This document shows, one piece after another, positions 4,282 to 44,756 of a stretch of DNA of 64,000 nt (positions within the stretch are counted from its first letter, which is position 1; each line of letters opens with the position of its first letter). The DNA is from an uncultured Gammaproteobacteria bacterium. GTDB lineage: Bacteria; Patescibacteriota; Microgenomatia; 2-02-FULL-39-11. The stretch is from contig CAYGXQ010000004.1 in assembly GCA_964354025.1 (NCBI GenBank), forward strand, positions 10,239 to 74,238, in the 5' to 3' direction. The position numbers were made by a program, and so were the translations under genes. The notes under the pieces were generated by a model. The model did no database searches, had not been told where the DNA came from, and worked only from the letters and a program-made list of their open reading frames with translations.

Positions 4282-4289
4282 AAATAAAC

Positions 4290-7504: not shown

Positions 7505-7805
7505 TTTTATCCTCATAGATCTCATCAACAGTGACAGAAGTCTGAGTGGGTCCGGCTTCGAGTATCCCAGCCATGGCCAGTAGGGGATTTTTGACGCTTC
7601 TGACTTTCCTCATTTTTGCTTCTTTGATCATTCTTGCTACCTGAGGTTTGGCGGCAAATTCTTCACTGGCGAGACGGAGGGCCTGCGCCAAAGGCATGCC
7701 GTGTGTTTTGGCGTAAATCCGCAAGTCTTCCAGTAAATTTTCAGGATAATAAATCTGCAGGCGTTTCATAACTCCGAGAATAACATATAGATGTATATCT
7801 GTCAA
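7497..7805 (-). CDS. ribbon-helix-helix antitoxin (VapB-like)
   Basis: The N-terminal MKRLQIYYPENLLEDLRIYAKTHG fits an RHH DNA-binding fold. It is cognate to the downstream PIN gene; the true start may be the internal Met. Confidence 0.5.
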   Translation of the reverse strand: MTDIHLYVILGVMKRLQIYYPENLLEDLRIYAKTHGMPLAQALRLASEEFAAKPQVARMIKEAKMRKVRSVKNPLLAMAGILEAGPTQTSVTVDEIYEDKND

Positions 7806-7949
7806 GTAATAGATGTATATTAAACCAGTTTTGGCTGATTGGGGGTTTTAGAATGGGGGATTTTGAGGTGCTGGTAGGCTTTTTCGGTGGCTAAGTTAAG
7901 GTCTTGACAAAGATAATTTTGTATTGTACTGTAATATACAGGATCAGGT

Positions 7950-8267
7950 ATGAATGAAGAATTAGTTATTCCCGAAGTAATTTCTTTTGAGTGGGATACG
8001 GGCAATCTGTTAAAAAGCAAGATCAAACATAAAGTTGATTCATTGGAATGTGAGCAGATTTTCCATAATGATCCTGTTTATTTTTTTGATGAGAAACATT
8101 CGCAAAAAGAGAAACGATATGCTGTTTACGGAGAAGCAGATCAGGGTAGGAAGTTATTTATTATTTTTACAATAAGAGATGACAAGATCAGGGTGATTTC
8201 CGCCCGCGATCAGAGTAAAAAAGAAAGGAGGGTATATGAAAAAAATAAAACCAATGCCCAGATTTAA
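7950..8267 (+). CDS. brnT: BrnT-family ribonuclease toxin (DUF497)
   Basis: 105 aa. The C-terminal IRVISARDQSKKERRVYEK matches the BrnT signature, paired with the overlapping downstream RHH gene. Confidence 0.7.
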   Translation: MNEELVIPEVISFEWDTGNLLKSKIKHKVDSLECEQIFHNDPVYFFDEKHSQKEKRYAVYGEADQGRKLFIIFTIRDDKIRVISARDQSKKERRVYEKNKTNAQI

Positions 8268-8520
8268 AAAAGAAGATGAAGAAAGGGATTTTTGGGCGAC
8301 CCATGACAGTACGGAATATTTTGATACGGCCAAGCCCATAAAGCTGAGTTTTCCCAATCTTCGGCCGTCTAACAAAGCCATCACTTTGAGGCTGCCGTTA
8401 TCCCTTCTTCATGCTTTGAAGAATCTGGCCAATAAAAAAGACGTACCATATCAGTCATTGATGAAAGTTTTTCTGGCGGAAAAGGTAAGGGATGAGATAA
8501 ATTACCGGAGGTGCAAATAG
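8236..8520 (+). CDS. brnA: BrnA antitoxin (CopG/RHH-like)
   Basis: 94 aa. …ITLRLPLSLLHALKNLANKKDVPYQSLMKVFLAEKV fits the BrnA family. It overlaps the end of brnT. Confidence 0.7.
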   Translation: MKKIKPMPRFKKEDEERDFWATHDSTEYFDTAKPIKLSFPNLRPSNKAITLRLPLSLLHALKNLANKKDVPYQSLMKVFLAEKVRDEINYRRCK

Positions 8521-8565
8521 GGTTTCACCTTAGAGGTGTACTTCTCAAAAATCCGTAAGTGTATT

Positions 8566-8799
8566 TTAAGTACAGAATCCCTCTGAAGGAGCAAAAACAT
8601 TTCCTCCGCAAGATCCACAAGTATAAAGAACCCTACCGGTTTTAGGTATCTGTTCCCATTGTTCCGGATCACAAACTAAAGTACCGGTACCTCCGGGACA
8701 ATTACCATGTGGTCCTAATGTAATTTCAATTCTATAAAAACACTTGTGAAACTCAAAATATCCTTCAGTCGATTGCCTTTGTCCCTTTATCTCTTTCAT
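8566..8799 (-). CDS. small Cys-rich protein of unknown function
   Basis: 77 aa with 6 Cys in CPGGTG…C and CGSCGGN motifs (zinc-ribbon-like). It sits downstream of the 349-aa gene on the same strand. Confidence 0.3.
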   Translation of the reverse strand: MKEIKGQRQSTEGYFEFHKCFYRIEITLGPHGNCPGGTGTLVCDPEQWEQIPKTGRVLYTCGSCGGNVFAPSEGFCT

Positions 8800-8848
8800 A
8801 ATAGTCTTGTTTAGTTTATGTTTCCCTCAGGAGATAAAAGATAATAAA

Positions 8849-9898
8849 TCAATCCAGTGAATATTTTACTACTCCAGGAATTTCAGGTAAGAGGTTGAGA
8901 TCGGAATCCAAATGATTATCCGTCAGAGCCAAGGCGCAAACTCCTAAAGAAGGTAAATGCTCCAGTACAGTTATAATGTCTTTGTATAAGATCGAAAATC
9001 CAAAAATAGTCTTCATGCCCCGTGTTGTATTTATAACAGCCTCATCTTGAAAAATTAAGCGATTAGTTGTATCTCGGATACGTTCTCCTTCAATAAGCGC
9101 GTAATTGTCAGGATTAATAATCTTTTGAGCAAATAATTCTTCCATTGTCATATCGGCTAATTTAGCGTATTCAGGACTCAGGCTTAATCTTGCTACCCGG
9201 GGATTTTCCTTACCGCCGGGTTTGATATATTTATCTAAAATCATAAAGATTTTTGCAGCCAAAATGGAAGCGGCCGGAGCTACTGCTTCTAGCTTACCAA
9301 AAGGCAATTTATGGGGAAAAGGTTTAGGTTTATTTTTATCGAAATCTACTTGGACATCATTTTCGTCAGAATCAACGATAAGAACCGGTTTTCGTCTTGT
9401 ATCCGTAGGAGAGTATAAGTCCCGGATCTGTTTGATCAGTCCCTGGGCTTGTTGGCTGTTTGGACCAGCAGTTTTTGAGATTGCCAAAAGAGCGCTAAAG
9501 CCTTTGACAATAATGACAGGATTCAATAATGTTTTACCACTTATGGGTTCTGCAGAAAAAACTTCCAGTTCACCCGGGGAAACTTGAGGAAAATCAGCTT
9601 GAAGTTGTTTTGTCAATTTGGCACATGTGGCAACTGTCTGTTTCTCATCTCTGAAATCCACGAAATCAACCTGTGCTTTATTTTCGATTAATTTTTCTCC
9701 AAGCTTATCGAGAATAGTCGTTCCCTCACCGGTAAAACCGGATGGGATGATTCGTCCGTGAGGATGCTGGTAACAGGCACAGGTAGTCAATTTTCCTATG
9801 AGCCAATCAACGTATCTTGTCTTTACATGTTCGCCAACAGCGGAAAATTGTTGTTGTTCGAAAGATTGTAGGGTATTATCTGGAGTATTGGTAGCCAT
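8849..9898 (-). CDS. hypothetical protein (349 aa), cargo of islet 1
   Basis: Long uninterrupted ORF. No motif I can assign with confidence. Confidence 0.4.
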   Translation of the reverse strand: MATNTPDNTLQSFEQQQFSAVGEHVKTRYVDWLIGKLTTCACYQHPHGRIIPSGFTGEGTTILDKLGEKLIENKAQVDFVDFRDEKQTVATCAKLTKQLQADFPQVSPGELEVFSAEPISGKTLLNPVIIVKGFSALLAISKTAGPNSQQAQGLIKQIRDLYSPTDTRRKPVLIVDSDENDVQVDFDKNKPKPFPHKLPFGKLEAVAPAASILAAKIFMILDKYIKPGGKENPRVARLSLSPEYAKLADMTMEELFAQKIINPDNYALIEGERIRDTTNRLIFQDEAVINTTRGMKTIFGFSILYKDIITVLEHLPSLGVCALALTDNHLDSDLNLLPEIPGVVKYSLD

Positions 9899-9899
9899 A

Positions 9900-10928
9900 T
9901 CAGATTAATTTTTCTTGTTTAGCCTCGGAAGAATGTCTGATTTTGAGGTGCTGGTAGGCTTTTTCGGTGGCCTGGCGGCCGCGGGGAGTCCTTTTTAAGA
10001 AACCGATTTGCATAAGATAAGGTTCGAGAACTTCTTCAATCGTGCCGATATCCTCAGAGAGGGTGGCCGCCATAGTTTCCACTCCGACCGGGCCGCCGCC
10101 ATGCTTTTCGATCAAAGCTTTAAGAAACCTCCGGTCACTGTCATCAAGCCCCAGCTGGTCAATTTCCAGAAGGGAAAAAGCCTCGGCTAAAACTTCCTCG
10201 TCAATATTTTCTTTACTTTTTACCTGGGCAAAGTCACGGGCCCGTTTGAGAAGTTTCAGGCCGATTCTTGGCGTGCCGCGGGCACGAATGGAAAGGGATT
10301 TAAGGGAATCGGGGGAAATATGGATCTTCAGTTTCTTTGAGGCATTACGGATAATTTCTTCCAGTTCTTTCGGTTCATAAAATTGCAGTCTTTGGACAAT
10401 GCCGAAGCGGTCGCGAAGGGGAGCGGACATGAGGCCGATCCGGGTGGTGGCGCCGATGATGGTGAATTTCGGCAAGTCAAGCCGGAGCGTCCTGGCTGAG
10501 GGGCCTTTGCCGATGACGATATCCAAGGCAAAATCCTCCATAGCCGGATACAAAGTTTCCTCAACCACTTTATTGAGCCGGTGGATTTCATCGATAAACA
10601 AAACATCGCCCGGTTCAAGGTTAGTCAAAATCGAAGCCAGGTCACCCGATCTTTCGATGGCCGGACCGCTGGTAACGCGGATATTGACACCCATTTCTTT
10701 GGCGATCAGGTGGGCCAAAGTGGTTTTGCCAAGTCCCGGCGGGCCGTATAAAAGCGTGTGTTCAAGCGATTCTTTCCTTTTTTTGGCGGCGGTGATGGCT
10801 ACATGGAAGGATTGTTTGACGCGGGACTGGCCGAAGAACTCCGACCAGGCAGAAGCGCGAAGGGAGGTAAAGAGTTTTTCCTCTTCCACGTCCGGTACTT
10901 GTTTATTGGTGGATGGTTTAGTAGTCAT
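9900..10928 (-). CDS. ruvB: Holliday junction branch-migration ATPase RuvB
   Basis: [22 protein letters not shown] (Walker A), DEIHRL (Walker B) and a winged-helix C-terminal domain. Confidence 0.9.
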
Positions 10929-11548: not shown

Positions 11549-11555
11549 GTTTAGT

Positions 11556-11626
11556 AGCGTCTAGCGTCTAGAAATTAGCGTCTAGTTAAAATATAACTAA
11601 ACGCTAGACGCTAGTAACTAGACGCT
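11556..11626. repeat. TAGCGTCTAG-unit palindromic element (ruvA-ruvC spacer)
   Basis: TAGCGTCTAGCGTCTAGAAATTAGCGTCTAG-TTAAAATATAA-CTAAACGCTAGACGCTAGTAACTAGACGCT: three direct units on the left and their reverse complements on the right. Confidence 0.65.
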
Positions 11627-20777: not shown

Positions 20778-21641
20778 ATGATTTGGCAGACAGCTCTGAT
20801 CTTCTATGTCTTCTTTGGCGTATTGCGCGGCTACTTCGACAAAAAACTGGTGACGAAGGTAGATCCGGTAGTGGCTTTTTTCTACAGCGCCGTTTGGAGT
20901 CTGGTGGCTTATTTTGTCATTTATTTTATTACCACCGGTTTCTTCTTTCCGATTTTGCCGGAACAGCTGGTTTTGGGAGTAGTCTATGTTTTTGGGATCT
21001 GGGCTTATCTGACCGCTTTACAGTTTAGTTTGTCCCAGACAGCGGTTTTTTGCTCCTACAGTATCCTCATCCCGATGATTCTCTCGGCGGCCTTTTTGGG
21101 CGAGTGGCAACTTTTTCATCCCGGAACTTTGGCGGGGCTAAAAAATATCTTCGGGATCATTTTGGCGTTTCTTTCTATGTATCTGATAATCAAAAGTCAT
21201 AACATTAAAGAAGAGAAACTGGAGAAAAAATGGTTTTTCCTCATTATCGTTAATATCTTTTCCGTGGGGATCGCCAACTATCTGTCCAAAATATATCTTG
21301 CTTCTTACGGGCCGGTGGAAGCGCTGATTTCCCAATCGCTTTCCGGCATCCCGCTTATTCTGATTATTAGTTTAATCACCGGGAAAAGCCTGAAATTGGC
21401 AAAGAAAGCGCATGCCTTGGCGGCCACAGACGGGATAGTGGTGGGACTGTCGGTCATCTTTTTTTACGCCATGCTCAAAGCCGGCGCGGCTTCGCTGGTC
21501 CTGCCGATTGGGATGAGTGCTTTGACGATCGTTTCCGTCCTGGTCGGGCTATTTATTTTTAAAGAAACCCATCTTTTTACTAAAGAAAAATTAATAGGGT
21601 TATTTATCGGGATTTTGGGGATAGTATTGTTGATAATATAA
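20778..21641 (+). CDS. DMT/EamA-family membrane transporter
   Basis: 287 aa, ~10 TM segments in two repeated halves. Confidence 0.45.
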   Translation: MIWQTALIFYVFFGVLRGYFDKKLVTKVDPVVAFFYSAVWSLVAYFVIYFITTGFFFPILPEQLVLGVVYVFGIWAYLTALQFSLSQTAVFCSYSILIPMILSAAFLGEWQLFHPGTLAGLKNIFGIILAFLSMYLIIKSHNIKEEKLEKKWFFLIIVNIFSVGIANYLSKIYLASYGPVEALISQSLSGIPLILIISLITGKSLKLAKKAHALAATDGIVVGLSVIFFYAMLKAGAASLVLPIGMSALTIVSVLVGLFIFKETHLFTKEKLIGLFIGILGIVLLII

Positions 21642-21658
21642 AAATTGTAGTCGGCTAT

Positions 21659-22858
21659 TTATCGAGGTGAAGATGATCTATACTCATAAATGACATCTTT
21701 AACAACCTGGAGGTAACTAAAATCTACTTCTCCATCCCTTAATTCAGGTGTTAATCCGTGTCCTTGGATTATTTCAGTCTGAGAAGCGATGATTGGCAAA
21801 GGTTGTTCATCAGGAGAATGTTTCAGTTGGAAATCGATAGTCTTCCTAAGCATGTGGCCAAATGCTGGTGGAGTGTTATTAATAACAACCGGGTGCCAAG
21901 GTTCATATCCTATTACCGCCTTCATATTATTTTTATAACCGCGTTCTCCTCTTGGAGTAGCATCCCACCCGACGACAGCCGGAGGTAAGAAAGGTAGATG
22001 ACTTCTTTGGCTAATTTCTTCCCACTGAATCATTCTTTTTCTTACTAAATCCGAATAATCTTGTTGGAAAGGTGCGTCTTGACCAAATTGCGGCAAAAAA
22101 GCATAACAAGTTAAGGCGTTAACGCCCGTTTGAACATAAGCGTCAACGGATTCCATTAATGATAAATATCCAACGATTACTCCTACAATATAGGGAGCGG
22201 TTCGATACTTTTTCTGTGAATATTCCCGTAATTCATTAATAAATGGTATCAGTTGTTTTGCTTTCCGTGTTCTTTCTTCTTTCGATTTCCTGTAGGGACT
22301 AAAAATAAATAGATATGGTTGTCCTTCTCGAGTTAAATAGTTTGATTGAGTCCAGTAATTTTGTGCGCAGTCATCAACTATTTGACGAGCGGTTTCCGGA
22401 GTATAATCATAATATCTATCGGGCTCCTCATAATCATTTTGCCTAGGAATAGGGATGATAACTCGCGGTCGTGCCAAAACAGGCATAACGGCAAATTTCA
22501 TTGCTTGCCCCGGTTGCGTATTACAAAATGCGTCAAGCGGCGCAGTCATTTCTCTTACTGGTCTTCCTCCGATTAAGCCAGAGTACATAGTAAAGATCCA
22601 GCCTCCAACATAGTGATCTTTAGCGTATTCTGCCTGTCTGGCAATATCGGGTTCACTTGCATCATTCCATGATGTGATCTTTGGATCTCCAAGGCAATGA
22701 ATGCGCGGTTGTCTATGACCAGCAAACAAGGGTTCAGCTGTCTGAGTAAGCATGGTTTCATCAACTAATTCTCTGCCTAATTTTTCAGCTCGATCCCTTC
22801 TTTCCTTATCTTGTCTGGAAAGAGGATAAAAAAACGCTAAGGCCTCAAGATTTGACAT
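21659..22858 (-). CDS. WbsX-like glycosyl hydrolase/transferase family protein
   Basis: 399 aa. The VVGWDATPRGERGY motif resembles the GWDNTPR signature of the WbsX family. Tentative. Confidence 0.35.
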   Translation of the reverse strand: MSNLEALAFFYPLSRQDKERRDRAEKLGRELVDETMLTQTAEPLFAGHRQPRIHCLGDPKITSWNDASEPDIARQAEYAKDHYVGGWIFTMYSGLIGGRPVREMTAPLDAFCNTQPGQAMKFAVMPVLARPRVIIPIPRQNDYEEPDRYYDYTPETARQIVDDCAQNYWTQSNYLTREGQPYLFIFSPYRKSKEERTRKAKQLIPFINELREYSQKKYRTAPYIVGVIVGYLSLMESVDAYVQTGVNALTCYAFLPQFGQDAPFQQDYSDLVRKRMIQWEEISQRSHLPFLPPAVVGWDATPRGERGYKNNMKAVIGYEPWHPVVINNTPPAFGHMLRKTIDFQLKHSPDEQPLPIIASQTEIIQGHGLTPELRDGEVDFSYLQVVKDVIYEYRSSSPR

Positions 22859-22941
22859 AAAACTCTTTTAGATATTTTTTAATCTCTAATGTAAAATATA
22901 AAGGGTATTTTATATATAAGTCTGACAATAATCAATATTAT

Positions 22942-23472
22942 ATGGATATTACTGACGACCAAAACGAATTGTTTGATATCGTGGATGAGGATGATCAGGT
23001 CATTGGTCAGGCGAGAAGGGGAGAAGTACATAAGGATAAGAAGTTGATCCATCGGAGTGTGAGTATTCTGGTTTTCAATGACTGGGGCGAGTTGTATCTG
23101 CAGAAGCGGTCAGCCACTAAAGACACAGATCCGGGTATATGGACGGTTTCCGCCTCCGGTCATGTGGAAGTGGGGGATAATTATGAGGAAACAGCGCATA
23201 GAGAACTACGGGAGGAATTGGGGATCGATATGGAGATTTCTTTTGTTGATAAATTCCTCTGTCGCGCTCCACATGAAACGGAGATGACAGCCATCTTTAA
23301 AGCCTTTCATAACGGTCCTTTTAAGTTAAACAAAGAGGAAATATCCGATGGTAAATTCTTTACCCGTAAAGAGCTAAATGAGGCAGTAAAAAAAGGAGAA
23401 ATTGACTTGAGTTTTATGGGAAGGCAGGTTTTGGAAAGAGTGGGGTGGATTTTAGGGCGAATTCCAAAATAA
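22942..23472 (+). CDS. NUDIX hydrolase
   Basis: GHVEVGDNYEETAHRELREELGI matches the Nudix box GX5EX7REUXEEXGU. Confidence 0.75.
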   Translation: MDITDDQNELFDIVDEDDQVIGQARRGEVHKDKKLIHRSVSILVFNDWGELYLQKRSATKDTDPGIWTVSASGHVEVGDNYEETAHRELREELGIDMEISFVDKFLCRAPHETEMTAIFKAFHNGPFKLNKEEISDGKFFTRKELNEAVKKGEIDLSFMGRQVLERVGWILGRIPK

Positions 23473-24624
23473 CATCTGCATTTTGGATTCGCCACAAAGG
23501 GCCGCAATCCTAAATAATTGTAAACATTATTTAGGAGCGAGCCCTTAGAGCAACTTTTTAATTTCCGAAATTGTCGATCTTTGTTTTGTCTGCAATTCCC
23601 TGATTTTTTTTACCCGTTCAATCATCGAAGGGTCAAATAACTGGTAACCGCCTTTGGTGAAACCCGCAACCGGTAATAATCCCTCTTTTGTCCAATACCT
23701 GATGGTATGGATTGTTTCATTGGTTGCCTTTGCCAATTCCCCGATTTTGAGGGAGGATTTCTCAGGTGAAAACTTTTTCAGGACCGGCTGTTTTTCTTCG
23801 ACAGCCCTGGTGAACATATCAAGAGAATTTTCAACTGCTTTTTCAATGAAAGCGTAGAAGGGTTGAAGATCATTTTTGGTTTGTCCGGTAAAAATAGCGT
23901 CAAGATATTGGGTGCGTTCTTCGTTTTTTATGATGGCCATGGGATACCCGTTTAAAAGCAAAATAAGATTCATCAGAAGCCTGGCTGTCCTTCCATTACC
24001 GTCAACGAACGGATGGATAGATACCAACTTAAAATGAGCATCGGCGGCAATTCTGACGGGATGATTTTCCTGTTGTCCTTCCAGCCAGCGGAAAAAGTCT
24101 TTCATCAGTGGCGGTACCTGACGGGGGAGGGGAAATTCAGTGTCAACACCCCGGATAAAAATTTCCGTTGCCCGATACCGGCCGGCCCAAAGATCATTGA
24201 TGCGGGTTAGAATAATTTTATGGATTGCCAATACATCAGCTTCGGAAATATATTGATGTCCCTTCAGTTTTGTGGAAAGCTCTTTGATGTAATCGACTGC
24301 TTGCGCGTGATTAATCGCCTCCAATTGATCTTGGAGCGGCTTGCCGCTGATAACCGCAGTGACACCTCTTTCGATCACTTCCGCAGTCTCAAGGCGGGAG
24401 AGGGTATTGCCTTCAATGGCATTTGAAGAATAAGTCAGTTCAACCTTTAGCCATTCCTCAAGGTTTTTGATCAGTTCAGGCGGCAACGGTCTGTATTTAT
24501 CCAATTGCCGTTTTTTCTCCGTCAGGATTTTTAATAGGCTGTCCATACCTAGAAGTATAAAGCAATGCTTTATGGTTGTCAAGTTATTGATGGGAAGAAA
24601 GGTTTTGGAGAGGGTGGGGTGGAT
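23416..24624 (+). mobile_element. putative integrated cargo islet 2 at the NUDIX gene 3' end, bounded by a ~35-bp imperfect direct repeat
   Basis: ATGGGAAGGCAGGTTTTGGAAAGAGTGGGGTGGAT (23416-23450, end of the nudix CDS) recurs as ATGGGAAGAAAGGTTTTGGAGAGGGTGGGGTGGAT at 24590-24624. The only gene between the copies is Fic-MerR. Confidence 0.45.
23545..24582 (-). CDS. Fic-family AMPylation protein fused to a MerR-type HTH
   Basis: HPFVDGNGRTARLLMN matches the Fic motif HPFx(D/E)GNGRxxR. The C-terminal IGELAKATNETIHTIRYWTKEGLL is a MerR-like HTH. Confidence 0.8.
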   Translation of the reverse strand: MTTIKHCFILLGMDSLLKILTEKKRQLDKYRPLPPELIKNLEEWLKVELTYSSNAIEGNTLSRLETAEVIERGVTAVISGKPLQDQLEAINHAQAVDYIKELSTKLKGHQYISEADVLAIHKIILTRINDLWAGRYRATEIFIRGVDTEFPLPRQVPPLMKDFFRWLEGQQENHPVRIAADAHFKLVSIHPFVDGNGRTARLLMNLILLLNGYPMAIIKNEERTQYLDAIFTGQTKNDLQPFYAFIEKAVENSLDMFTRAVEEKQPVLKKFSPEKSSLKIGELAKATNETIHTIRYWTKEGLLPVAGFTKGGYQLFDPSMIERVKKIRELQTKQRSTISEIKKLL

Positions 24625-24628
24625 AAAA

Positions 24629-26020
24629 TTAGCGAATGCCGTATTTGATTAAACGTTTGGCTTCGATCCGCAGGACTTCCGGAATCAGAGCTTTGTAGAC
24701 ACTGCAATACGGTGAAGAGGTATCATACCGCCCTTTTTGTTGATAGGTAAGTAAGGGGCAGCCGCCACCACAAAGGTATTTCCACTGACAATTCTTACAA
24801 GGAGTTTTACCTAATACAGTCAAACCAATTGGTCTGACAAAATTACCTTTTATCATTGTCTCCATCAAATCAGGATCATCAATAGAGCCGATCGGTTTCT
24901 CCAAAGTCATCTGACAGCTTGATAGCTTTCCCTGATGGTTAATGACCAGATAACCGTAGCCCATGCCGCAGGGATGAAAATGGGGTTTGCTGAAATTTAC
25001 CCGGTCCAAAAGACTGTCCATCACCGGATATTCAGGCGGATTGTCATAAAGATATTGATAGGCTTTTTTTAATTTTTTAACTAACTTTTTATCATTGCCT
25101 TCCAATTCTTCGGTAACATAAGGATTTTCACGATAGAAATTAAAAGCAAAATGGATCTTCCGGTCAAGCAAATATTTCGTCAACTCGGGAATTCCGTCAA
25201 TGTTTTTGGATGAAATAGTCACGGAGACATTAAAAGGAACTTTAGCTTTTATTAAATTATTTATCCCTTTTATCACCAGATCAAAACTGCCAATACCAGA
25301 AGGAAATATTCTTGTCCGGTCGTGAAATTTTTTCAAACCGTCAAGAGAAACTGCCGCCCGAAGGTTATTCTCTTTTAATATTATAGCCACTTTCTCATTA
25401 ATCAGGATGCCATTGGTCAAAACGACAAAATCAGTTTTGATGCCGTATTTCTTGCTTAAACTTTTAGCCTGTTTGACAAGTGTGAGAATCATCGGCAGTT
25501 CCAAAAGAGCTTCTCCGCCGGAGAATTTCAGGGCAACTTTTTCAATCCCGTGTTTTTTGGCAGACAGGTATACTTGATCAATGGCTTTCTTGCCGACTGC
25601 CGGACTCATCTTCTCTACGGTTTTGCGGACATAACAATAAGTGCAACGCAAATTACACTGGTTGATGATATGCAGCCAAACGCTGATGATTTTGGGTTTT
25701 TTGGCTGATAATTCCAGCAGGGTCTTGGGTTTACCGAAATAAATGATTTCTGAAGCGTATAAATCTTTGAAAGTCTGTTTAATGACGGAAAACTTGATTT
25801 TGGGAACTTGTTTTTGAGCTGACTGCCAAATATCCTCAAGCGTCTTTTTCCCGTCTATCAAAGAGTACAAAAAAGCGGCATCCTTATTTAAGACAACTAA
25901 ACCTTTTTCCGAAAGAGGAGCGTAAACCAATAAAAAACCCTCCACTTTATCCGTATAAGTCTCCGGATAAAAGCAAGGGACAGAAGAAGCGGTTAAATCA
26001 GAGTTTAAACTCATCCGCAT
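24629..26020 (-). CDS. radical SAM/SPASM maturase with N-terminal PqqD-like RRE
   Basis: CNLRCTYCY (CxxxCxxC) and GGEALL (SAM glycine motif). A C-terminal CKNCQWKYLCGGGC (Cx2Cx5Cx3C SPASM) follows, and the first ~100 aa (GLVVLNKDAAFLYSLIDGKKTLEDIW…) resemble a RiPP recognition element. Confidence 0.8.
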   Translation of the reverse strand: MRMSLNSDLTASSVPCFYPETYTDKVEGFLLVYAPLSEKGLVVLNKDAAFLYSLIDGKKTLEDIWQSAQKQVPKIKFSVIKQTFKDLYASEIIYFGKPKTLLELSAKKPKIISVWLHIINQCNLRCTYCYVRKTVEKMSPAVGKKAIDQVYLSAKKHGIEKVALKFSGGEALLELPMILTLVKQAKSLSKKYGIKTDFVVLTNGILINEKVAIILKENNLRAAVSLDGLKKFHDRTRIFPSGIGSFDLVIKGINNLIKAKVPFNVSVTISSKNIDGIPELTKYLLDRKIHFAFNFYRENPYVTEELEGNDKKLVKKLKKAYQYLYDNPPEYPVMDSLLDRVNFSKPHFHPCGMGYGYLVINHQGKLSSCQMTLEKPIGSIDDPDLMETMIKGNFVRPIGLTVLGKTPCKNCQWKYLCGGGCPLLTYQQKGRYDTSSPYCSVYKALIPEVLRIEAKRLIKYGIR

Positions 26021-26202
26021 GCGCAGTCATTGAGTGGTTTAAATGGTTCTTGTCCAACTCCTGGCTGATAAATGACACCTGATCGTGATGATATAGAAAG
26101 TCTATTTTCTATACCAGGTTTAGCCAGACCAAGTCTTGACAAACCCAATGTTGATCGTCCATCTCCGAGCGGTCGATGTCCTTCACATAATGCTACTGGC
26201 AT
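26011..26202 (-). CDS. candidate RiPP precursor peptide (63 aa, C-terminal NDCACG)
   Basis: Small ORF MPVALCEGHRPLGDGRSTLGLSRLGLAKPGIENRLSISSRSGVIYQPGVGQEPFKPLNDCACG. Its stop overlaps the start of the rSAM gene. A strong SD (AAGGAGGTGA) lies 13-15 nt upstream of its ATG. Confidence 0.3.
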   Translation of the reverse strand: MPVALCEGHRPLGDGRSTLGLSRLGLAKPGIENRLSISSRSGVIYQPGVGQEPFKPLNDCACG

Positions 26203-26339
26203 ATCAAATCAGCTTCACCTCCTTAATAATTTTAGTTTGGATTATTGTATCTTACTATATAATGTTTGGGACAGTCAATACTTGCATGCCACAAAAACCT
26301 ATAGTATAATAAACCCTCAAATTTCTGCCTCACAAAAAT

Positions 26340-29300
26340 ATGCCTATAGAGCGTATTCATGTTCAAAATGGCGATAGATCTACCAGAGTTGCCTTACCCG
26401 GAGGTATTGGTCTTAGGGGATTGACCGTGGGTGATACTCCTGATGTTGTCAGAATTTTGTCTGATCCTGATAATAGCAAGTACATGAATTTAACTTTTGA
26501 TCCTGCTGACCAAAATGCGGTACAAGGTTGGATAAGAGAGGTTGGAAACAGAGGTCTATATTTTGCTATTGAAAGAAAAAATAGACATGGCCCTTGTCAG
26601 GTGGTTGGCCATGTTGGATTAAAGCCCAGTGTATCTAACCAAGCCCAGGCTGAAATCGGAATTGTTTTGGATCATGACGAGCAAGAACGGGGAACAGCCA
26701 TGCAGGCGGTCTTGGCCGCTTTGCATATCGCAGACCGCTGCGGCATCACAACAGTACAAGCTCGAATCCATCCAGGAAATCACCGGAGCAGAAGACTATT
26801 CCGTCGTCTTGCCGGCTCGGAACATATGGGCACTGACGGATGCATCGTTGTTTCTCTTGACAGGCTGAAAAGATTAAAAAGCGGTTTTGATGGTTTATTT
26901 GACGAAGGCAGAAAATGGTTTTCCCACCAATTGGAAACGATTCCGTATCAGTCGCTCGACAGTTTTATCAGGCATTGGTTGGAAAATCTCTCGGAGGCAA
27001 TTCCTCAAGATGTACTACTGCAATATTGGGCTAAAACTGATCCTTCAAACGAGGTTCGCCAATTGGCTGACCAGGCCAAAGCAGGTGAACATCTGCCAAT
27101 TTCTCATTTCTGGTGGCAGCGTACAGTGGTGGAGACAGTGCTAAATTTAGACCCTCTGACAATTGAATATCTAAAACCGGAGACGATGAAACTCGCGGCG
27201 GAAAATTTTTTTGCCAATCCTTTAACCGCAAAAGAAGAGATCATAAAACTCGCTGATAAAACAACTAAAGAAGTGACGTGGGAACCTGTTGCCCATCTCA
27301 AATCAAATACAATTTTTAATGCCTGCTGTGCAGGATTATCCGAAGCCATGTCCAGAAGAGATCTGTCTCATGGATTTAACTCCGCACAAATGGGTTTTGA
27401 GATGGAAAACTACCGGACTTTTTTTATAAAAGTATTAGCAGATATCCGGGAACGAGCCACATTCTATGATACCCGTTTGCCTTACCAGAATATAGTGAGC
27501 ATTTGTGATGCTTTGGGGCTTTCTGAAACCGTGACAGGACTAAGTTGTGAACAACTGCGTTTTGTCTTGCCCTTATTTTGCCGGTATCTGGAGCTTTATA
27601 TTGCCAGCGCCACCTTGCTACCCAGAGGATACAACTTCGATAAAACTGATATGAGATTGAACTTGAAATATCTACTTGAGAGACATTTGAATTATCTTCG
27701 TCAACAGGCAGAAAACCATACAGAGGCATATGACCTGAATGAATTGCGCCAATTGGTTGATCCGGAAAAATTCCCTGAAATAACCGGCATCGTTGATGAT
27801 AAATTTTCACCCGGAGAAACCTTTTGGGCAGAATTGGCAAAAAAGGATACAGTTTCTATTCTTTCCCGGGAAACTTATCACGATACTCTTTGTTTCCAAT
27901 TGGAAAGGGGAGAGAAACAAAAAATTATTTATGTGCCGGTTGGCAACCAGTTATATCTTTCCGCGGCACTGGTGGCGGTGGAAGATTTTTTGACGCATCC
28001 GGAGGAATATCCAATTGGTTTGCATTTCCATGAATTTCTGGAAACGGTTCCGGCCGGCACCGGTCAAGAGATCAAAGCCCAGAGCGTCGGTGACATTTTA
28101 TATGTAACAACGTTAACAGCACTCCGCTATGCTAATACGGTGGCCGGTTGGCGGGTGCATTTCCGGCATGAAGCAGACCATCTTTGGTTCACCCGCAAAT
28201 ATGCCAAACTTTACCAGATGATTGGATCGCCAACGCACCTTGAAGGATGGCTTTATTACCTTCGCCATCGTTTTGATATGGCACTTTTCCGGCCGGAGAA
28301 TGGCAGATTACCGGTCTTTGGTCCGATGCAGCTTCTGATTGACGACTGGGAAAATTTTTCCGCCGGCAGATGGGGAGAGACTTGCGCCATCTGGTTTTAT
28401 ATTTGCGACAGATTGCGTTCTATTACTCCGGATCCGGTCAGGGATTTGGTAGATTTTTTATACCAACACTACGAAATAAACGGTGTGTTATCAATATTAG
28501 ATGATTTAGATGGAAATACTTTGTACGACAATCAGGAGTATTTTTTTCATATTTTTGCCAGATTTGTTTTTGAGAGACTTGACCGGTCCGGATTAAGTAA
28601 CCCTGAAACGGCTGTTTTGGCAACCGGCAATTTCCCCCTGATCATGATTGAGGCTTTGATGCAAGCGCCGGAAACCGCCTGGACTCAGTTGCCCGGAGTT
28701 AGGCAGCTTTATGGGAAAAAACATGCCGATGAGGTCATACCGGTATTAGAACGATTACGCAAACATCCGGAAGAATGGTATGCCTTGTTATATTTTACCC
28801 TTGAAGATGATTTCAAGCGGTGGAAACAACATGTCGACAAAAGATTAACCGCCATCGTTGATGATCAATTTGTAATTATTGACCCAGAAAGCTTTTCTAA
28901 TCCTGCTCTGAGAAGATTAATACAAATTCAAACTGAGAAGCTTGATGAAGCCGGATTTGACTATTTTAAATACAGAGATACACATCACCCTTTTTTGGTT
29001 GAAGATTTAGGGAGGCGATTGGACCAACAACTGAAGACAGATTTATTTAATAATAGTTTTGAAGGAAATGATGTACGGTTGACCTATTTATTCATGCGCT
29101 ACAAACTGCTGTGGGAATATACCAAACGGACTCATGAATGGAGTTCGGAGCAAATTGAAAGCAGATTGGATTTCTTAGAATCAACTCTCGAAGACATATT
29201 AGCGCATAATCAAACCAAAGGCGTATTTAGAGAATCTCTGGAAAGAACAGCAGAATATATCAGAAGTTGGATTGCCAAAACAAAAGAGGAATTGTCTGTC

Positions 29301-30266
29301 TATGAGATGAAATCGGTTGCCCCGGCCGGTAGTTTGGAGGCAAAAAGATCATCTGTTATCAAAGCTGAACCGGTGACTTCGGAGAAAAGAGCGCGGGTGG
29401 TAGATGTTCTAAAAGAAGCCAAAACTATCGGTAATTTCACTTGCGAAAAACAATTAATGTCATTTGCCACTAACAACGGCGGTGAATTATTTTTGTTTGA
29501 AGCCGCTGGTCAACAAAGGCTGGTTTTAAGAAGAGAGACGCCAATCCCGCAAGCGAGAATTATGTTTTCTCAAACTCAAAGGGATGAAGAATTAGTTAGT
29601 TGGTTAATAAGGAATTGGGGTGCAGAGTATATAGCATATACTTTATTAGCGGAACCGATCGATGGTATGGGAGAGCCGGCATTGAGAGAGGATCTGGTTG
29701 GTTATTTACCGGAAATTGCTTTAATGACCAATCCGGAAGTTGAACATAGTTTCCGCAGAGCTCTAAAAGCTCATCAGGGCTTGAAATATTATCCGTTATC
29801 CGGAAGTGATGAAGAGAAAGTAACTATTATGAGGTTATTTGATTTTTGGGATAGACAAGGGGCCAATCAACCTATTCCAATGTCGACAGCGATGGACAGA
29901 CGGTTTCTGGATATGTATTGGGGTGATTCGGATGTTTGGGGTGGACTGGCGATGATCGGCAAGCAGGCAGTTGGAGTGGAACTGGGAGCGCCGCATAGCG
30001 TCAGGCCTGATTATGCAACCGGGATAGTTTTAAAAACTGATCATCGATATATTGGCATCGGGACCTTTCTGCAGGTTGAAAGGGCAAAATTATTAGTTGA
30101 GCGAGGCTTTCGATATTTATGCTTTGGAGATCCCGGAACTACTCCAAAGCAATATCTCAATAAGAAACCGTTTTTAATACCAGGGGGTAAGGTAAATGTG
30201 TCTTATTCGTATAAACTTAAAGGACCGGAATTAGGGAATGAATTCCTGAAAGATTTTTATAGATAA
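26340..30266 (+). CDS. giant (1308 aa) protein with N-terminal GNAT acetyltransferase domain and C-terminal GNAT-like domain
   Basis: The N-terminal ~170 aa (…AEIGIVLDHDEQERGTAMQAVLAALHIADRCGITTVQARIHPGNHRSRRLFRRLAG) show a RimL/Acetyltransf_3-like pattern. The C-terminal …GIVLKTDHRYIGIGTFLQVERAKLLVERGFRYLCFGD is also GNAT-like. The middle ~950 aa is Trp/aromatic-rich with no match I recognise. Confidence 0.5.
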   Translation: MPIERIHVQNGDRSTRVALPGGIGLRGLTVGDTPDVVRILSDPDNSKYMNLTFDPADQNAVQGWIREVGNRGLYFAIERKNRHGPCQVVGHVGLKPSVSNQAQAEIGIVLDHDEQERGTAMQAVLAALHIADRCGITTVQARIHPGNHRSRRLFRRLAGSEHMGTDGCIVVSLDRLKRLKSGFDGLFDEGRKWFSHQLETIPYQSLDSFIRHWLENLSEAIPQDVLLQYWAKTDPSNEVRQLADQAKAGEHLPISHFWWQRTVVETVLNLDPLTIEYLKPETMKLAAENFFANPLTAKEEIIKLADKTTKEVTWEPVAHLKSNTIFNACCAGLSEAMSRRDLSHGFNSAQMGFEMENYRTFFIKVLADIRERATFYDTRLPYQNIVSICDALGLSETVTGLSCEQLRFVLPLFCRYLELYIASATLLPRGYNFDKTDMRLNLKYLLERHLNYLRQQAENHTEAYDLNELRQLVDPEKFPEITGIVDDKFSPGETFWAELAKKDTVSILSRETYHDTLCFQLERGEKQKIIYVPVGNQLYLSAALVAVEDFLTHPEEYPIGLHFHEFLETVPAGTGQEIKAQSVGDILYVTTLTALRYANTVAGWRVHFRHEADHLWFTRKYAKLYQMIGSPTHLEGWLYYLRHRFDMALFRPENGRLPVFGPMQLLIDDWENFSAGRWGETCAIWFYICDRLRSITPDPVRDLVDFLYQHYEINGVLSILDDLDGNTLYDNQEYFFHIFARFVFERLDRSGLSNPETAVLATGNFPLIMIEALMQAPETAWTQLPGVRQLYGKKHADEVIPVLERLRKHPEEWYALLYFTLEDDFKRWKQHVDKRLTAIVDDQFVIIDPESFSNPALRRLIQIQTEKLDEAGFDYFKYRDTHHPFLVEDLGRRLDQQLKTDLFNNSFEGNDVRLTYLFMRYKLLWEYTKRTHEWSSEQIESRLDFLESTLEDILAHNQTKGVFRESLERTAEYIRSWIAKTKEELSVYEMKSVAPAGSLEAKRSSVIKAEPVTSEKRARVVDVLKEAKTIGNFTCEKQLMSFATNNGGELFLFEAAGQQRLVLRRETPIPQARIMFSQTQRDEELVSWLIRNWGAEYIAYTLLAEPIDGMGEPALREDLVGYLPEIALMTNPEVEHSFRRALKAHQGLKYYPLSGSDEEKVTIMRLFDFWDRQGANQPIPMSTAMDRRFLDMYWGDSDVWGGLAMIGKQAVGVELGAPHSVRPDYATGIVLKTDHRYIGIGTFLQVERAKLLVERGFRYLCFGDPGTTPKQYLNKKPFLIPGGKVNVSYSYKLKGPELGNEFLKDFYR

Positions 30267-30454
30267 GACTTTTTCAGGAGATATAACATACTGGACAATT
30301 TATTTTTCCTGGAGTAAACTATCAGATACCACTCACGCTTTAACTGTTCGAGTATATACCCCTCTAATCCGCTCCCGATTAAATCGGGACCGGAATAAGA
30401 CGGGTATACATTATCATAAAACATTATTAACATTTATATTAATAAAAGGTATGG

Positions 30455-30483
30455 ATTCCTCCCGATTAAATCGGGACAGGAAT
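30455..30483 (+). promoter_or_regulatory. near-perfect 13-bp-stem hairpin overlapping the gdhA SD/start codon
   Basis: ATTCCTCCCGATTAAATCGGGACAGGAAT contains AGGAATG, with the annotated ATG at 30482. A sister copy TCCCGATTAAATCGGGAC lies at 30363-30380. Confidence 0.4.
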
Positions 30484-31813
30484 GACAATTATTAATATGA
30501 CTACAAAAATCAATCCTTTCGAAAACGCCATGGGGCAGTTAGAAAAAGCTTTAAAATATCTGAAACTGGAGAAATGGCAGATCGACCGTTTGAGAAACCC
30601 CGAAAAAATTATTTCCGTCAATTTTCCCGTCAAAATGGACAATGGTGAAACCAAGATTTTCCACGGATTTAGGGTACAACACAACAGTGCTCGAGGCCCA
30701 TACAAAGGTGGCATCCGTTATCATCCGCAAGTCGATATGGATGAGGTGAAGGCGCTGGCTTTCTGGATGGCGATCAAATGCGCGGTGGCAGATATCCCGA
30801 TGGGTGGAGGTAAAGGCGGGATCGAGGTTGACCCGAAAATTTTGTCGGAAAGCGAATTGGAAAGATTGAGTCGGGCTTATGCCAAGGCAATTTCGGCTGA
30901 CATCGGTCCTTATAAAGACGTACCGGCGCCGGATGTGAATACGACCCCGCAGATTATGAAGTGGATGGTTGACGAGTATATTAAAGATCAAAAATCAAAG
31001 ATCAAAAACATTAAGAAGAAAGAAATAAGCAAACTAATGGGGACGTTTACAGGGAAGCCGGTGGACTATGGTGGAAGTCTTGGAAGAACTGAAGCGACAG
31101 GTAGGGGAGGATCATATGTTTTGGAAGCATTACTTGCGAGAATGAAACTCAAGGGGCGGTACGGGAAAGAACTGACGGTAGCTGTCCAGGGATTTGGTAA
31201 TGTCGGTTTTTATATTGCTAAATTTTTACGCGAGATGGGGATGAGGATAGTGGCTCTCTCCGACTCCAAGGGAGCAATTGTCGTCAAAAACATAGAGAAG
31301 GACGGTTTCAATCCGGATTTGGTCTTGAAATGCAAGAAAGAGAAAGGGGAACTTTCAAGCTGTTATTGCGTTGGTTCTGTTTGTGACTTGTCTTTTGGAA
31401 AAACACTGACCAATGAAGAACTTCTGGAATTGCCGGTGGATATTCTGGTACCATCAGCTTTGGAAAACCAGATTACCGGAAAAAATGCCGGTAGGATAAA
31501 AGCCAAGGCGATTCTTGAGATGGCCAATGGACCAACAACTCCGGAAGCAGACGTGATTTTGCATAAGAGTGGAATTCCGGTTGTGCCGGATGTTTTGTCC
31601 AATTCAGGCGGAGTAACCGTTTCCTGTTTTGAGTGGGAACAGAATCTGAAAGCCCAACATTGGACGGAAAAAGCGGTGAATGCCAAATTGAAACAGAAGA
31701 TGGTGAAGGCTCTTGAAATGGTTTGGGAAACCTCAAAACGGGAAAAAACGGATTTGCGGACAGCCGCCTTCATCGTCGCTATAAGAAGAATTATGGATAA
31801 AACAAGGGGTTGA
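30482..31813 (+). CDS. gdhA: Glu/Leu/Phe/Val-type glutamate dehydrogenase
   Basis: KGGIRYHP…MGGGKGGI (substrate/Lys motif) and a C-terminal NAD(P) Rossmann GFGNVG. Carries an in-frame KDQKSKIKNIKKKEISK low-complexity insertion. The true start may be the second ATG at 30497. Confidence 0.85.
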   Translation: MTIINMTTKINPFENAMGQLEKALKYLKLEKWQIDRLRNPEKIISVNFPVKMDNGETKIFHGFRVQHNSARGPYKGGIRYHPQVDMDEVKALAFWMAIKCAVADIPMGGGKGGIEVDPKILSESELERLSRAYAKAISADIGPYKDVPAPDVNTTPQIMKWMVDEYIKDQKSKIKNIKKKEISKLMGTFTGKPVDYGGSLGRTEATGRGGSYVLEALLARMKLKGRYGKELTVAVQGFGNVGFYIAKFLREMGMRIVALSDSKGAIVVKNIEKDGFNPDLVLKCKKEKGELSSCYCVGSVCDLSFGKTLTNEELLELPVDILVPSALENQITGKNAGRIKAKAILEMANGPTTPEADVILHKSGIPVVPDVLSNSGGVTVSCFEWEQNLKAQHWTEKAVNAKLKQKMVKALEMVWETSKREKTDLRTAAFIVAIRRIMDKTRG

Positions 31814-31885: not shown

Positions 31886-32647
31886 ATGCCTGAGGAAAAA
31901 ACTTCTGCCAAGAATAATTATTTAAAATATGGATTGATTGGTCTTTTGGTGGTTGCCGCTTTTGCTATTGGTAGCCTTTATACCAAAGTCCAGACTCTTG
32001 AAAAAGGTGGAAAAGTAGCTGGAGTTCAGGAGGGCCAGCCGACCCAACCGGCGAAAGTAGATGTCAAAGTAACTGACGATGATCCGCAAAAAGGTCCGAA
32101 AAATGCTAAAGTAACGGTCGTGAATTTTTCCGATTTCCAGTGTCCTTTTTGTGGCGCATATTCGGGGCACAATACCGAGCTGGTAAAAACTATGCAGCAA
32201 AGGGATGCTTCTTGGCAGGCGGCAGAGACCAATATTTTGAAGGAATACGTTGACAGCGGTAAAGCCAGATTTGTCTGGAAAGATTATCCTTTCCTTGGGC
32301 AGGAATCTATGGACGCGGCCGCAGCCGCCCGTTGTGCTCAGGACCAGGGAAAATTCTGGGAGTATCATGATTATCTTTTTGGAAACCAAAAAGGGGAGAA
32401 TCAGGGGCAGTTTTCCAAAGAGAATCTGAAGAAATTTGCGGCAACTTTGAAGTTGAACACCAAAGACTTCAATAATTGCGTCGATAGCGACAAGTATGCC
32501 AATAAAGTCAAAGACGCTATCGCTTACGGGCAAAGCGTTGGCGTCTCTGGTACGCCGGCTACCTTCGTCAATGGCAACTTAATCTCCGGAGCGGCTCCTT
32601 TTGCCACTTTTAAGGCGGCGATAGAAGAGGAATTGAAGAAAAAATAA
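31886..32647 (+). CDS. DsbA-family thiol:disulfide oxidoreductase (membrane-anchored)
   Basis: N-terminal TM, then FSDFQCPFCGAY (CPFC thioredoxin-fold active site). Confidence 0.7.
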   Translation: MPEEKTSAKNNYLKYGLIGLLVVAAFAIGSLYTKVQTLEKGGKVAGVQEGQPTQPAKVDVKVTDDDPQKGPKNAKVTVVNFSDFQCPFCGAYSGHNTELVKTMQQRDASWQAAETNILKEYVDSGKARFVWKDYPFLGQESMDAAAAARCAQDQGKFWEYHDYLFGNQKGENQGQFSKENLKKFAATLKLNTKDFNNCVDSDKYANKVKDAIAYGQSVGVSGTPATFVNGNLISGAAPFATFKAAIEEELKKK

Positions 32648-32854: not shown

Positions 32855-32927
32855 GGGCTCGTAGTTCAACCGGTAGAACATCTCATTTGCAATGAGAAGG
32901 TAGGCGGTTCGAGTCCGCCCGGGTCCA
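32855..32927 (+). tRNA. tRNA-Ala (anticodon UGC)
   Basis: Hand-folded cloverleaf: acceptor GGGCUCG/CGGGUCC with two GU pairs, D-stem GUUC/GAAC, anticodon stem UCUCA/UGAGA with loop UUUGCAA, T-arm GGCGG-UUCGAGU-CCGCC. No encoded CCA. Confidence 0.75.
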
Positions 32928-32932
32928 CTTTT

Positions 32933-32999
32933 TAGCGTCTAGAGGTTAGCGTTTAGCGTTTAGAAAAAACTATACGCTAGACGCTAGTAACTAAACGCT
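32933..32999. repeat. TAGCGTCTAG-unit palindromic element (between tRNA-Ala and 23S)
   Basis: TAGCGTCTAGAGGTTAGCGTTTAGCGTTTAG-AAAAAACTATA-CGCTAGACGCTAGTAACTAAACGCT. The right arm is 22/23 identical to the ruvA-ruvC copy. Confidence 0.65.
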
Positions 33000-40586: not shown

Positions 40587-40768
40587 TTGCAGGTAAATGT
40601 ATTGATCTTGGGATGGGGAATCGGATGTAGGGCAGGCGTCCGATTTCCCTTTCGAGGGTCAATCGGCAATAATTACGCGTCTAGAGAGTGTAATTTGAGG
40701 AGACTTTGATAATCTTCGTCGTTCCGCTTTCAAAAACCATTTTTTACAGTATTCACGTTAATCCCGCT

Positions 40769-40797: not shown

Positions 40798-40805
40798 GTA
40801 ATATT

Positions 40806-44751: not shown

Positions 44752-44756
44752 TATTA

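Follow-up and report, generated by a model that had tools for sequence, protein, structure and literature searches.

The e14 element and phage 21 integrate in the icd gene of Escherichia coli, and we take both to be elements that bring a replacement terminus with them. In Streptococcus thermophilus, ICESt1 and ICESt3 integrate in fda, and their att-flanked derivatives that lack an integrase are known as cis-mobilizable elements, or CIMEs (PMC3234194, PMC7563491, PMC5812530). Here, we describe a comparable locus in a stretch of 64,000 nt (contig CAYGXQ010000004.1, positions 10,239-74,238 of the forward strand, assembly GCA_964354025.1; hereafter the window), where a gene encoding a Fic-MerR fusion protein lies between two copies of the 3′ end of a NUDIX hydrolase gene, nudix. 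As at e14/icd, ICESt1/fda and in the CIMEs, the direct repeats are made of the target gene terminus, a diverged element-borne end keeps the gene open, and the native end comes to lie beyond the element; as in the CIMEs, the unit carries cargo without an integrase. It differs from these elements in consisting of a promoter and one open reading frame (ORF) of about 1.1 kb in total, with no integrase detected in the 64 kb, and in that the window holds three different target genes with no common core. Because no recombinase domain was detected in any window ORF of at least 120 aa and Fic stands alone between the repeats, only the integrase-less CIME subtype fits.

The classes of Fic enzymes and the mechanism of their inhibition are the subject of an established classification (PMC3667792). 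SoFic has been described as a single-gene Fic defence system (PMC12249575), and its AMPylation target has been reported to be EF-Tu (2026 preprint, bioRxiv 10.64898/2026.07.09.737422). On balance we lean toward reading the locus in the window as an integrase-less integrated islet, in which foreign DNA (23424-24586) entered the last ~40 bp of nudix by a single crossover with a circle carrying a nudix terminus, served by a recombinase acting in trans, and delivered an autoregulated class II Fic enzyme as its cargo. Both the Fic islet and the protein family are of known kinds; the finding is real and largely ordinary.

A displaced terminus at the nudix 3′ end

The features on which the argument depends are given below, one per line. 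Labels beginning with L, here and in the text, denote the comparison loci and contigs that were fetched.

22942-23472, forward strand: NUDIX hydrolase gene in its present form, 176 aa, IPP-isomerase/YfcD-like (Pfam NUDIX, 4.3e-18)
23413-23450, forward strand: repeat copy 1 (R′), the terminus now used by nudix (33/38 to 24587-24624)
23451-23472, forward strand: replacement nudix tail (...ILGRIPK, stop), with no equivalent in relatives (nucleotide and protein alignment)
23498-23545, no strand assigned: strong hairpin in the gap on which nudix and Fic converge; candidate bidirectional terminator (folding)
23545-24546, reverse strand: Fic-MerR gene, 333 aa, ATG start (Pfam Fic 8.9e-26, MerR_1 1.1e-15)
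24554-24582, reverse strand: predicted cassette promoter, TTGACA-17 nt-TATACT, sigma-70-type, 11/12 consensus matches
24587-24627, forward strand: repeat copy 2 (R), the probable displaced native nudix terminus (40/41 to L006 566-606)
24629-26020, reverse strand: radical SAM/SPASM peptide maturase gene (rSAM), PapB-like, part of an older insertion (Pfam, NCBIfam)
26340-30266, forward strand: the other gene of the older insertion, coding for 1308 aa with a GNAT domain at the N-terminus (Pfam Acetyltransf_3, 3.7e-18)
30283-30324, forward strand: remaining part of the ancestral nudix 3′ end, with the sequence downstream of it (L006 602-642 at 90%; L003 at 100% over 30290-30324)

A sequence-only reading of this DNA had reported that the last 35 bp of nudix recur downstream of the Fic gene, and the repeat is present as it described: 23416-23450 and 24590-24624 are identical at 31/35 positions. 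The gap-free match grows to 38 nt (23413-23450 and 24587-24624, 33/38), and the pair is recovered at E = 4.5e-5 when the window is compared with itself by BLAST. The pattern formed by the 31 bases common to both copies matches at only two places in the window and at none in 100 dinucleotide-preserving shuffles. Translated in the nudix frame, the downstream copy ends ...LMGRKVLERVGWIKLANAVFD before a stop codon, so that the earlier rendering of this end as ...VLERVGW is right; the frame runs on to a stop at 24650-24652, which overlaps the 3′ end of rSAM. The only credible ORF between the copies is the minus-strand Fic and MerR gene, in agreement with the earlier claim that a single gene lies there. 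Two independent assemblies from other sequencing runs (L001, 100%; L002, 99.87%) show the same structure, which makes an assembly artefact unlikely. An apparent continuation of the repeat into the end of rSAM (TTAGGGCGAATTCC versus TTAGCGAATGCC) is suggestive but not beyond chance. We rejected a diversity-generating retroelement, since the differences between the copies are not adenine-specific and there is no reverse transcriptase.

Homologues of nudix come from Microgenomates, Gottesmanbacteria and related bacteria of the candidate phyla radiation (CPR), and the window is attributed to a Microgenomates-like CPR bacterium; all NCBIfam matches of the protein fall under their cut-offs. The order EamA-nudix is kept by the orthologues in L003-L007 and L020. 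In four contigs of close relatives (L003-L006, 84-88% nucleotide identity) the order is EamA-nudix-GDH-DsbA with no gene in between, and in the more distant L020, which reads RuvC-RuvA-RuvB ... PEPCK-EamA-nudix-GDH-DsbA with a few small ORFs between RuvC and PEPCK, the slot between nudix and GDH is filled by another gene, a 256-aa ORF. None of these five loci has Fic, as expected of the proposed insertion at the nudix 3′ end, and they lack rSAM as well, its absence having been noted specifically in L003, L006 and L020. Homology of nudix to every relative ends at 23448-23450 (BLAST against the window) and is taken up again in two separate places: L006 566-606 corresponds to 24587-24627 of the window at 97.6%, and L003 1315-1349 to 30290-30324 at 100%, with colinearity resuming at 30406 ahead of GDH (30482-31813) and DsbA (31886-32647). 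In the relatives the sequence found here at 30283-30324 follows R directly. The ancestral nudix end, ...GGTGGAT followed immediately by AAATACTGGACAA..., is thus broken in the window into R and the tail piece, which argues that two insertions are stacked at the nudix 3′ end. Judged from these alignments, the older insertion is 24628-30282, containing the rSAM/SPASM maturase gene and the gene of the 1308-aa GNAT-domain protein, and it entered without a duplication; by the same comparison the second insertion is the Fic segment between R′ and R. The earlier picture of an islet simply bounded by two copies therefore has to be amended, because the rSAM and GNAT insertion splits the ancestral end too.

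The distribution of mismatches between the window and L006 bears on which copy is native. In the last 250 bp of nudix, 17 mismatches fall in 23208-23298 and only three in the 125 bp of 23299-23423, after which four are packed into the 16 bp of 23424-23439, inside R′ (Fisher p ~0.04 for this clustering). R has none of those four substitutions and matches L006 at 40 of 41 positions, which bears out the earlier claim of a displaced nudix terminus downstream. This pattern suggests that R is the natural continuation of the L006-like tract, that the distal part of R′ (23424-23450), the new tail, the hairpin and the Fic gene are foreign, and that the point of exchange lay in or next to the shared ATGGGAAG.

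In the proposed mechanism, the chromosome would have recombined with a circular intermediate carrying a copy of the nudix terminus, by one crossover within or close to the shared ATGGGAAG, with a recombinase, if any, acting in trans. The order at the locus, native 5′ part, foreign terminus, cargo and native terminus, is the reason for proposing single-crossover topology. The insert, 23424-24586, would have brought the distal part of R′ with a 7-codon tail and stop, the bidirectional hairpin, and a minimal promoter-plus-ORF cassette, and would have pushed the native terminus R (24587-24627) 1.17 kb downstream, against rSAM. Because the incoming DNA supplied a terminus, nudix would have stayed intact.

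The limits of the cassette itself are indicated by its closest relative, a Fic gene (P0122, 88% aa identity) located in another genome and at a different locus, L008, where it adjoins a FemAB-like gene. Nucleotide homology between L008 and the window covers 23552-24584 only, beginning a few bases ahead of the -35 hexamer and ending just short of the stop codon. Flanking repeats were found at none of the Fic-MerR loci L008, L009, L010 and L012; the mobile unit therefore appears to be a bare promoter-plus-ORF, and the repeat to be a feature of this insertion site, not of the gene. The stop codons of nudix and Fic are separated by 73 nt that fold at -24.5 kcal/mol on one strand and -25.0 kcal/mol on the other (z -4.2 and -4.1), and 0/200 shuffles fold as well; by its position in the alignment the hairpin is within the inserted DNA. 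The insert has no compositional anomaly (GC 0.40-0.46 throughout), and no inverted repeats were found at the cassette ends. Carriage of the cassette by a phage was considered and rejected, as IMG/VR gave only 39%-identical Fic genes without a MerR domain. In L008 the divergent neighbour of Fic (3728-4699, reverse strand) shares 29% identity with the last ~290 residues of the 1308-aa GNAT protein of the window, so that Fic stands near a relative of this protein in two genomes, which may be coincidence.

Probable reuse of the nudix slot and further islets

The nearest homologue of rSAM (90% aa identity) is in a genome that lacks Fic, GCA_022866885.1, on contig L026, where it is followed by GNAT1307 (84% aa identity between the GNAT proteins of the two genomes), GDH and DsbA. 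Another contig of this assembly, L007, reads PPDK-PEPCK-aminotransferase-EamA-nudix and then a convergent DUF4143 ATPase gene. Both contigs end within an AAA_14/DUF4143 ATPase gene, in an orientation that fits one ATPase bridging nudix and rSAM. From this likely adjacency of L007 and L026, the nudix slot of GCA_022866885.1 very probably holds a DUF4143 ATPase cassette, and would thus serve for the exchange of cassettes. The window and L026 stay homologous and colinear from 30324 down to 24587, precisely the position at which R starts, and the R-rSAM junction is therefore common to both genomes; to the left of it they differ in the cassette and in the length of the displaced fragment. In L026 this fragment, which lies between the ATPase promoter and the rSAM stop, is no shorter than 64 nt and is 86% identical to the window nudix; tblastn aligns 31 codons, and by eye it reads ...FIRNEIAEKIKKQIIDLSFMGRQVLERVGWIKLANAVFD and a stop in the nudix frame.

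The presence of R next to rSAM in a genome without Fic, there as part of a more extended displaced piece of nudix that adjoins a different inserted cassette, could also mean that R was retained as a functional element, either as a terminator or regulator of rSAM or as an upstream element of the Fic promoter, whose -35 hexamer lies 5 nt from R. The sequence-only reading had named conservation of R as an rSAM regulatory sequence in Fic-less genomes as a finding that would count against an insertion. R is indeed there, but the two rSAM-bearing genomes match at 32/35 of its positions, close to the 88.8% found around it, and on the rSAM strand it is unstructured (-1.6 kcal/mol, z -0.8). In L006 and L007 the homologue of R is the coding end of nudix, and the Fic promoter of L008 has a completely different sequence upstream. 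A terminator or regulatory role was rejected on these grounds of structure and homology, and the chance that R owes its retention to any such function seems to us nearly negligible.

When paralogues and MITE-like elements are set aside, short-range direct repeats occur in the 64 kb as only three pairs, all at gene 3′ ends and with lengths of 38, 42 and 42 bp. The first islet is at the 3′ end of ruvB (9930-9971 versus 7850-7891, 39/42), and its cargo, 7892-9929, comprises a 349-aa ORF without a family match that starts 1 nt past the ruvB stop, a Cys-rich 77-aa ORF, and a BrnT/CopG toxin-antitoxin pair. Its displaced copy is a complete alternative terminus, reading ...PHSKTPNQPKLV to the stop codon; in the comparison of the two ruvB termini the second reads ...HLKIPHSKTPNQPKLV and a stop. 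The copies drop abruptly from 39/42 to ~40% identity over the last 30 nt, with the same length and a similar peptide, a pattern that resembles two alleles of a single terminus and not the decay of a duplicate. In the third islet the target is a membrane-protein gene of the DUF2298 type, again at its 3′ end (41955-41996 versus 40703-40744, 35/42). Its cargo, 40745-41954, is a convergent DUF4143/AAA_14 ATPase gene (PADLOC PDC-S01, 2e-144) with a TTGACA-17-TAAAAT promoter of its own and a stop that overlaps the stop of the DUF2298 gene (TTAA); the two termini read from the sequence are ...KVDTFRY and ...KVSSNYTL, each before a stop. No terminus-type repeat pair was found in ~350 kb of other fetched loci, which are partly redundant. 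The window also has small selfish or defence-type modules amid housekeeping genes at 47156-48556 (forward strand), 3300-3674, 7076-7805 and 44353-45173, among them a second DUF4143 ATPase and three PIN-domain toxin genes with RHH or Phd antitoxin partners; none of the second ATPase and PIN modules is flanked by a terminus repeat.

Three direct-repeat pairs of like length flanking cargo within 64 kb are what one might expect if each repeat had arisen in situ, whether as a long target-site duplication or as a small tandem one made at insertion, with the copies diverging later. At nudix, however, all four core differences are in the coding copy, and the non-coding copy equals L006 at these positions; under duplication and drift the non-coding copy should decay faster, and the opposite asymmetry is seen. 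The islet 1 copies look like two alleles, no transposase was detected in window ORFs of at least 120 aa, and none is known to make duplications of ~40 bp. We consider an origin of this kind very improbable. A transposon target-site duplication in particular was rejected, the repeat being too long (38 bp) and imperfect, with its differences in one copy, and accompanied by neither transposase nor inverted repeats.

Several observations weigh against our preferred reading, a single crossover with a terminus-carrying circle. The distinction between foreign and native copies depends on the four clustered substitutions, and perfect runs of 35-48 bp are found elsewhere between these genomes. RecA acts poorly on a segment of 38 bp at 87% identity. 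Among the window ORFs of at least 120 aa, none was recognised as an integrase, transposase or serine recombinase; seven had no Pfam match, and six of these, all but the 644-aa ORF at 54414-56348, were searched against PHROGs and NCBIfam as well, again with no recombinase. No core motif common to the three islet repeats emerged on visual comparison, and because they share no core sequence a single site-specific enzyme is not indicated. The evidence from GCA_022866885.1 comes from separate contigs, L007 and L026 (the pair JALHWS010000037 and JALHWS010000137), whose ends overlap by only ~88 bp at ~85% identity. Neither a circular form nor a strict empty site was observed in the genomes compared: the empty allele that the sequence-only reading had proposed to look for, nudix followed directly by rSAM, was found in none of the relatives examined, and a metagenome scan with nudix and a genome scan with rSAM returned few close relatives.

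Acquisition without any recombinase after DNA uptake would accommodate several of these observations. The cassette and the displaced terminus could have arrived by double-crossover replacement of the slot, from a donor that already had the order nudix-R′-Fic-R-rSAM, or by homology-facilitated illegitimate recombination, with an anchor in nudix and a join at the left edge of R; the displaced terminus would then be a by-product and not an att site. The second process is documented in naturally competent bacteria (PMC3240628). These lineages clearly recombine: identity to L003 leaps from ~85% to 96-97% within a few kb, nudix itself is a mosaic, and from this mosaic identity homologous exchange among them is judged to be frequent. 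In addition, no recombinase was found in the window, the displaced fragments are unequal (41 nt in the window, at least 64-93 nt in L026), and the cassette has no terminal repeats of its own and is present in L008 with no duplication. A double-crossover exchange, however, shifts the origin of R′ and R to the donor and leaves it unexplained, while an illegitimate join requires that the crossover (23399-23423) and the junction (equivalent to 23413) coincide within ~15-25 bp, and that the same coincidence recur at three loci with duplicated segments of 38-42 bp. We regard recombinase-free acquisition as possible and somewhat unlikely.

A bolder interpretation places the three islets in a distinct class of recombinase-less mobile units of this CPR lineage, promoter-plus-ORF defence cassettes (Fic-MerR, DUF4143 ATPase, BrnTA and others) that carry a 60-70-bp decoy of the 3′ terminus of a housekeeping gene, enter the end of that gene by means of it and swap the terminus. 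Such a class would integrate after natural transformation or through an unrecognised trans-acting recombinase, and it would explain three islets in 64 kb together with two cassettes at the same nudix position in sister genomes. We think this decidedly unlikely.

The Fic-MerR protein and its promoter

The catalytic motif of Fic enzymes, HxFx(D/E)GNGRxxR, is intact in the cargo protein (H178-PFVDGNGRTA-R189; HPFVDGNGRTAR). In an alignment of 27 members H178, D182, N184, G185, R186 and R189 are invariant, and the HPFxDGNGRxxRLLMNL catalytic loop and the MerR-type winged helix-turn-helix (wHTH) are invariant or nearly so. The sequence-only reading had asked whether an inhibitory alpha-inh helix is present. 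The (S/T)xxxE(G/N) motif occurs N-terminal to the core on the same chain, as S41-N-A-I-E45-G46, invariant in all 27, and the surrounding TYSSNAIEGNTL is invariant or nearly so. No separate small antitoxin ORF lies upstream of Fic, and the cassette holds one ORF; a class I FicTA toxin-antitoxin module was rejected, as there is no separate antitoxin gene and alpha-inh is intramolecular. The motif on the same chain assigns the protein to the auto-inhibited class, and from its sequence and predicted model it is a class II, FICD-like, intramolecularly inhibited Fic enzyme, with E45 as the predicted inhibitory glutamate. AMP-transferase activity is likewise predicted from the motifs and the fold.

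The best solved relatives by sequence are human FICD (E 2e-40) and BT_2513. An AlphaFold (AF2) model of the protein has a mean pLDDT of 83.6, and Foldseek matches it to FICD (4u0u) at E 1.6e-11. It resembles FICD/HYPE and other class II Fic proteins (4U0U, 6I7G; BT_2513, 3CUC) at 35% identity and TM 0.65 over ~250 residues, with a canonical catalytic loop and an inhibitory SNAIEGN that aligns with the TVAIEGN of FICD. It differs in having no TPR or membrane anchor and in possessing a C-terminal MerR-type wHTH; the substrate of FICD is the endoplasmic reticulum Hsp70 BiP.

PADLOC profiles for PDC-S04 (8.4e-30), itself a candidate defence system, and SoFic (2.8e-27) match Fic-MerR. Like SoFic of Shewanella oneidensis and PDC-S04, it combines a class II Fic domain with a C-terminal domain of DNA-binding type in one gene; unlike SoFic it has a predicted MerR-type DNA-binding domain in place of the SoFic wHTH. 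The match to the SoFic PDB sequence covers the core only (residues 146-249, E ~6e-8), and the fold match has an rmsd of ~10-11 Å. The cassette would act as a conditional toxin or a candidate anti-phage module, self-contained and autoregulated.

The MerR-type wHTH occupies residues 266-333 (PF13411, MerR_1, 1.1e-15 over residues 279-345 of the translation from a TTG start). That TTG, at 24582, is the -35 hexamer and not the start of the gene. The C-terminal 68 residues match residues 1-67 of CadR (E 1.7e-8), 67 of the 147 residues of that protein, and coiled coil and effector domain are absent. The Fic-MerR protein and its 26 aligned homologues end ~0-10 residues past the wHTH, so the family would be without the MerR coiled coil and effector-binding domain. 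Compared with MerR regulators such as CadR (PDB 6JGV), the window locus shares the wHTH and a dyad between the -35 and -10 hexamers, and differs in that the wHTH is C-terminal and is joined to neither a dimerisation coiled coil nor an effector-binding domain. The sequence-only reading had called the fusion unusual, which does not hold: the best 120 database clusters are all Fic plus MerR at 61-88% identity, from several phyla that include Patescibacteria, Campylobacterota (Sulfuricurvum), Methylomirabilota and Chloroflexota, so that at least 120 clusters share the architecture.

A perfect 8+8 dyad, ATAAAGCAtTGCTTTAT, lies at 24557-24573, in the spacer of the cassette promoter and overlapping its -10 hexamer. 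The spacer between -35 and -10 is the characteristic position of a MerR operator. The layout CTTGACA-dyad-TAtACT recurs upstream of Fic-MerR in L008 and L012, and L009 has a variant half-site (TAGGG...CCTTA). MerR activators act at an over-long spacer of 19-20 bp by distorting the DNA, whereas the spacer of the window promoter is 17 bp; this optimal length and the lack of an effector domain make simple autorepression the likeliest mode. From the placement of the dyad, the MerR domain probably binds in its own promoter and represses the Fic-MerR gene, and the autoregulation put forward by the sequence-only reading is plausible, with a predicted operator whose layout is found again upstream of homologues. 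In three of four loci (24544-24559 of the window, reverse strand; L009; L012) the Fic-MerR ATG begins 7 nt past the -10 hexamer, which suggests a leaderless or near-leaderless mRNA for this family.

Neighbouring genes and the biology of the locus

Between EamA and nudix the window has a WbsX-like gene (21659-22858, reverse strand, within 21626-22940) that is missing from L003 and L007, where EamA and nudix are 7-52 bp apart; a VapBC pair holds the same position in L039. The WbsX-like insertion rewrites the last ~16 nt of EamA and has no flanking duplication. Upstream of GDH a palindromic element, CTCCCGATTAAATCGGGAC, occurs twice, 87 bp apart (30372-30396 and 30459-30483), in a segment of ~81 bp missing from L003, and weaker copies occur elsewhere (33192, 61500).

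The rSAM maturase is PapB/ranthipeptide-like (NCBIfam 1.6e-46, under the cut-off). It is preceded by a candidate precursor of a ribosomally synthesised and post-translationally modified peptide, a 63-aa ORF (26011-26202, reverse strand) with an AAGGAGG ribosome-binding site and the C-terminus ...NDCACG, whose TGA overlaps the rSAM ATG (ATGA; rSAM 24629-26014/26020). The ORF is kept in L026 with an in-frame 6-nt indel. In the 1308-aa partner of rSAM the N-terminal GNAT is the only domain recognised. In L027-L030 (Patescibacteria) a 62%-identical rSAM homologue adjoins genes for a large serine recombinase, a BrnT/CopG pair, a sigma factor and T4SS-pilin proteins, as well as an unrelated NUDIX gene; judging by these neighbours, an integrative or conjugative element may carry the rSAM gene in other CPR bacteria.

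Intergenic repeats are scattered through the window. MITE-like repeats (GAAGCAATCCCGT...GGGATCGCCACG...CGCGATGACA, 40-113 nt) are present in at least four copies (45168-45281, 54249-54355, 58405-58514 and 59478-59517). Heptamer-rich repeats (TTAGCGT/TTTAGTC) are found at 11554-11626, 32932-32999, 53863-53899, 58137-58168, 59581-59617 and 63266-63302, one of them directly 3′ of tRNA-Ala (32855-32928). Tandem paralogous PMT_2-type glycosyltransferase genes (49685-51355 and 51369-53036, reverse strand) are 93% identical over their first 300 nt and ~67-72% over the rest.

Fic-MerR represents a large, highly conserved and uncharacterised family that offers an easy target for biochemical and phage-defence tests. 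The locus that carries it is a clean, sequence-resolved example of how a packed CPR genome gains a single accessory gene and keeps a housekeeping gene by means of a substitute end. In these organisms, the three islets together with the alternative occupant in a related genome mark out conserved genes as places of cassette exchange at their 3′ termini.

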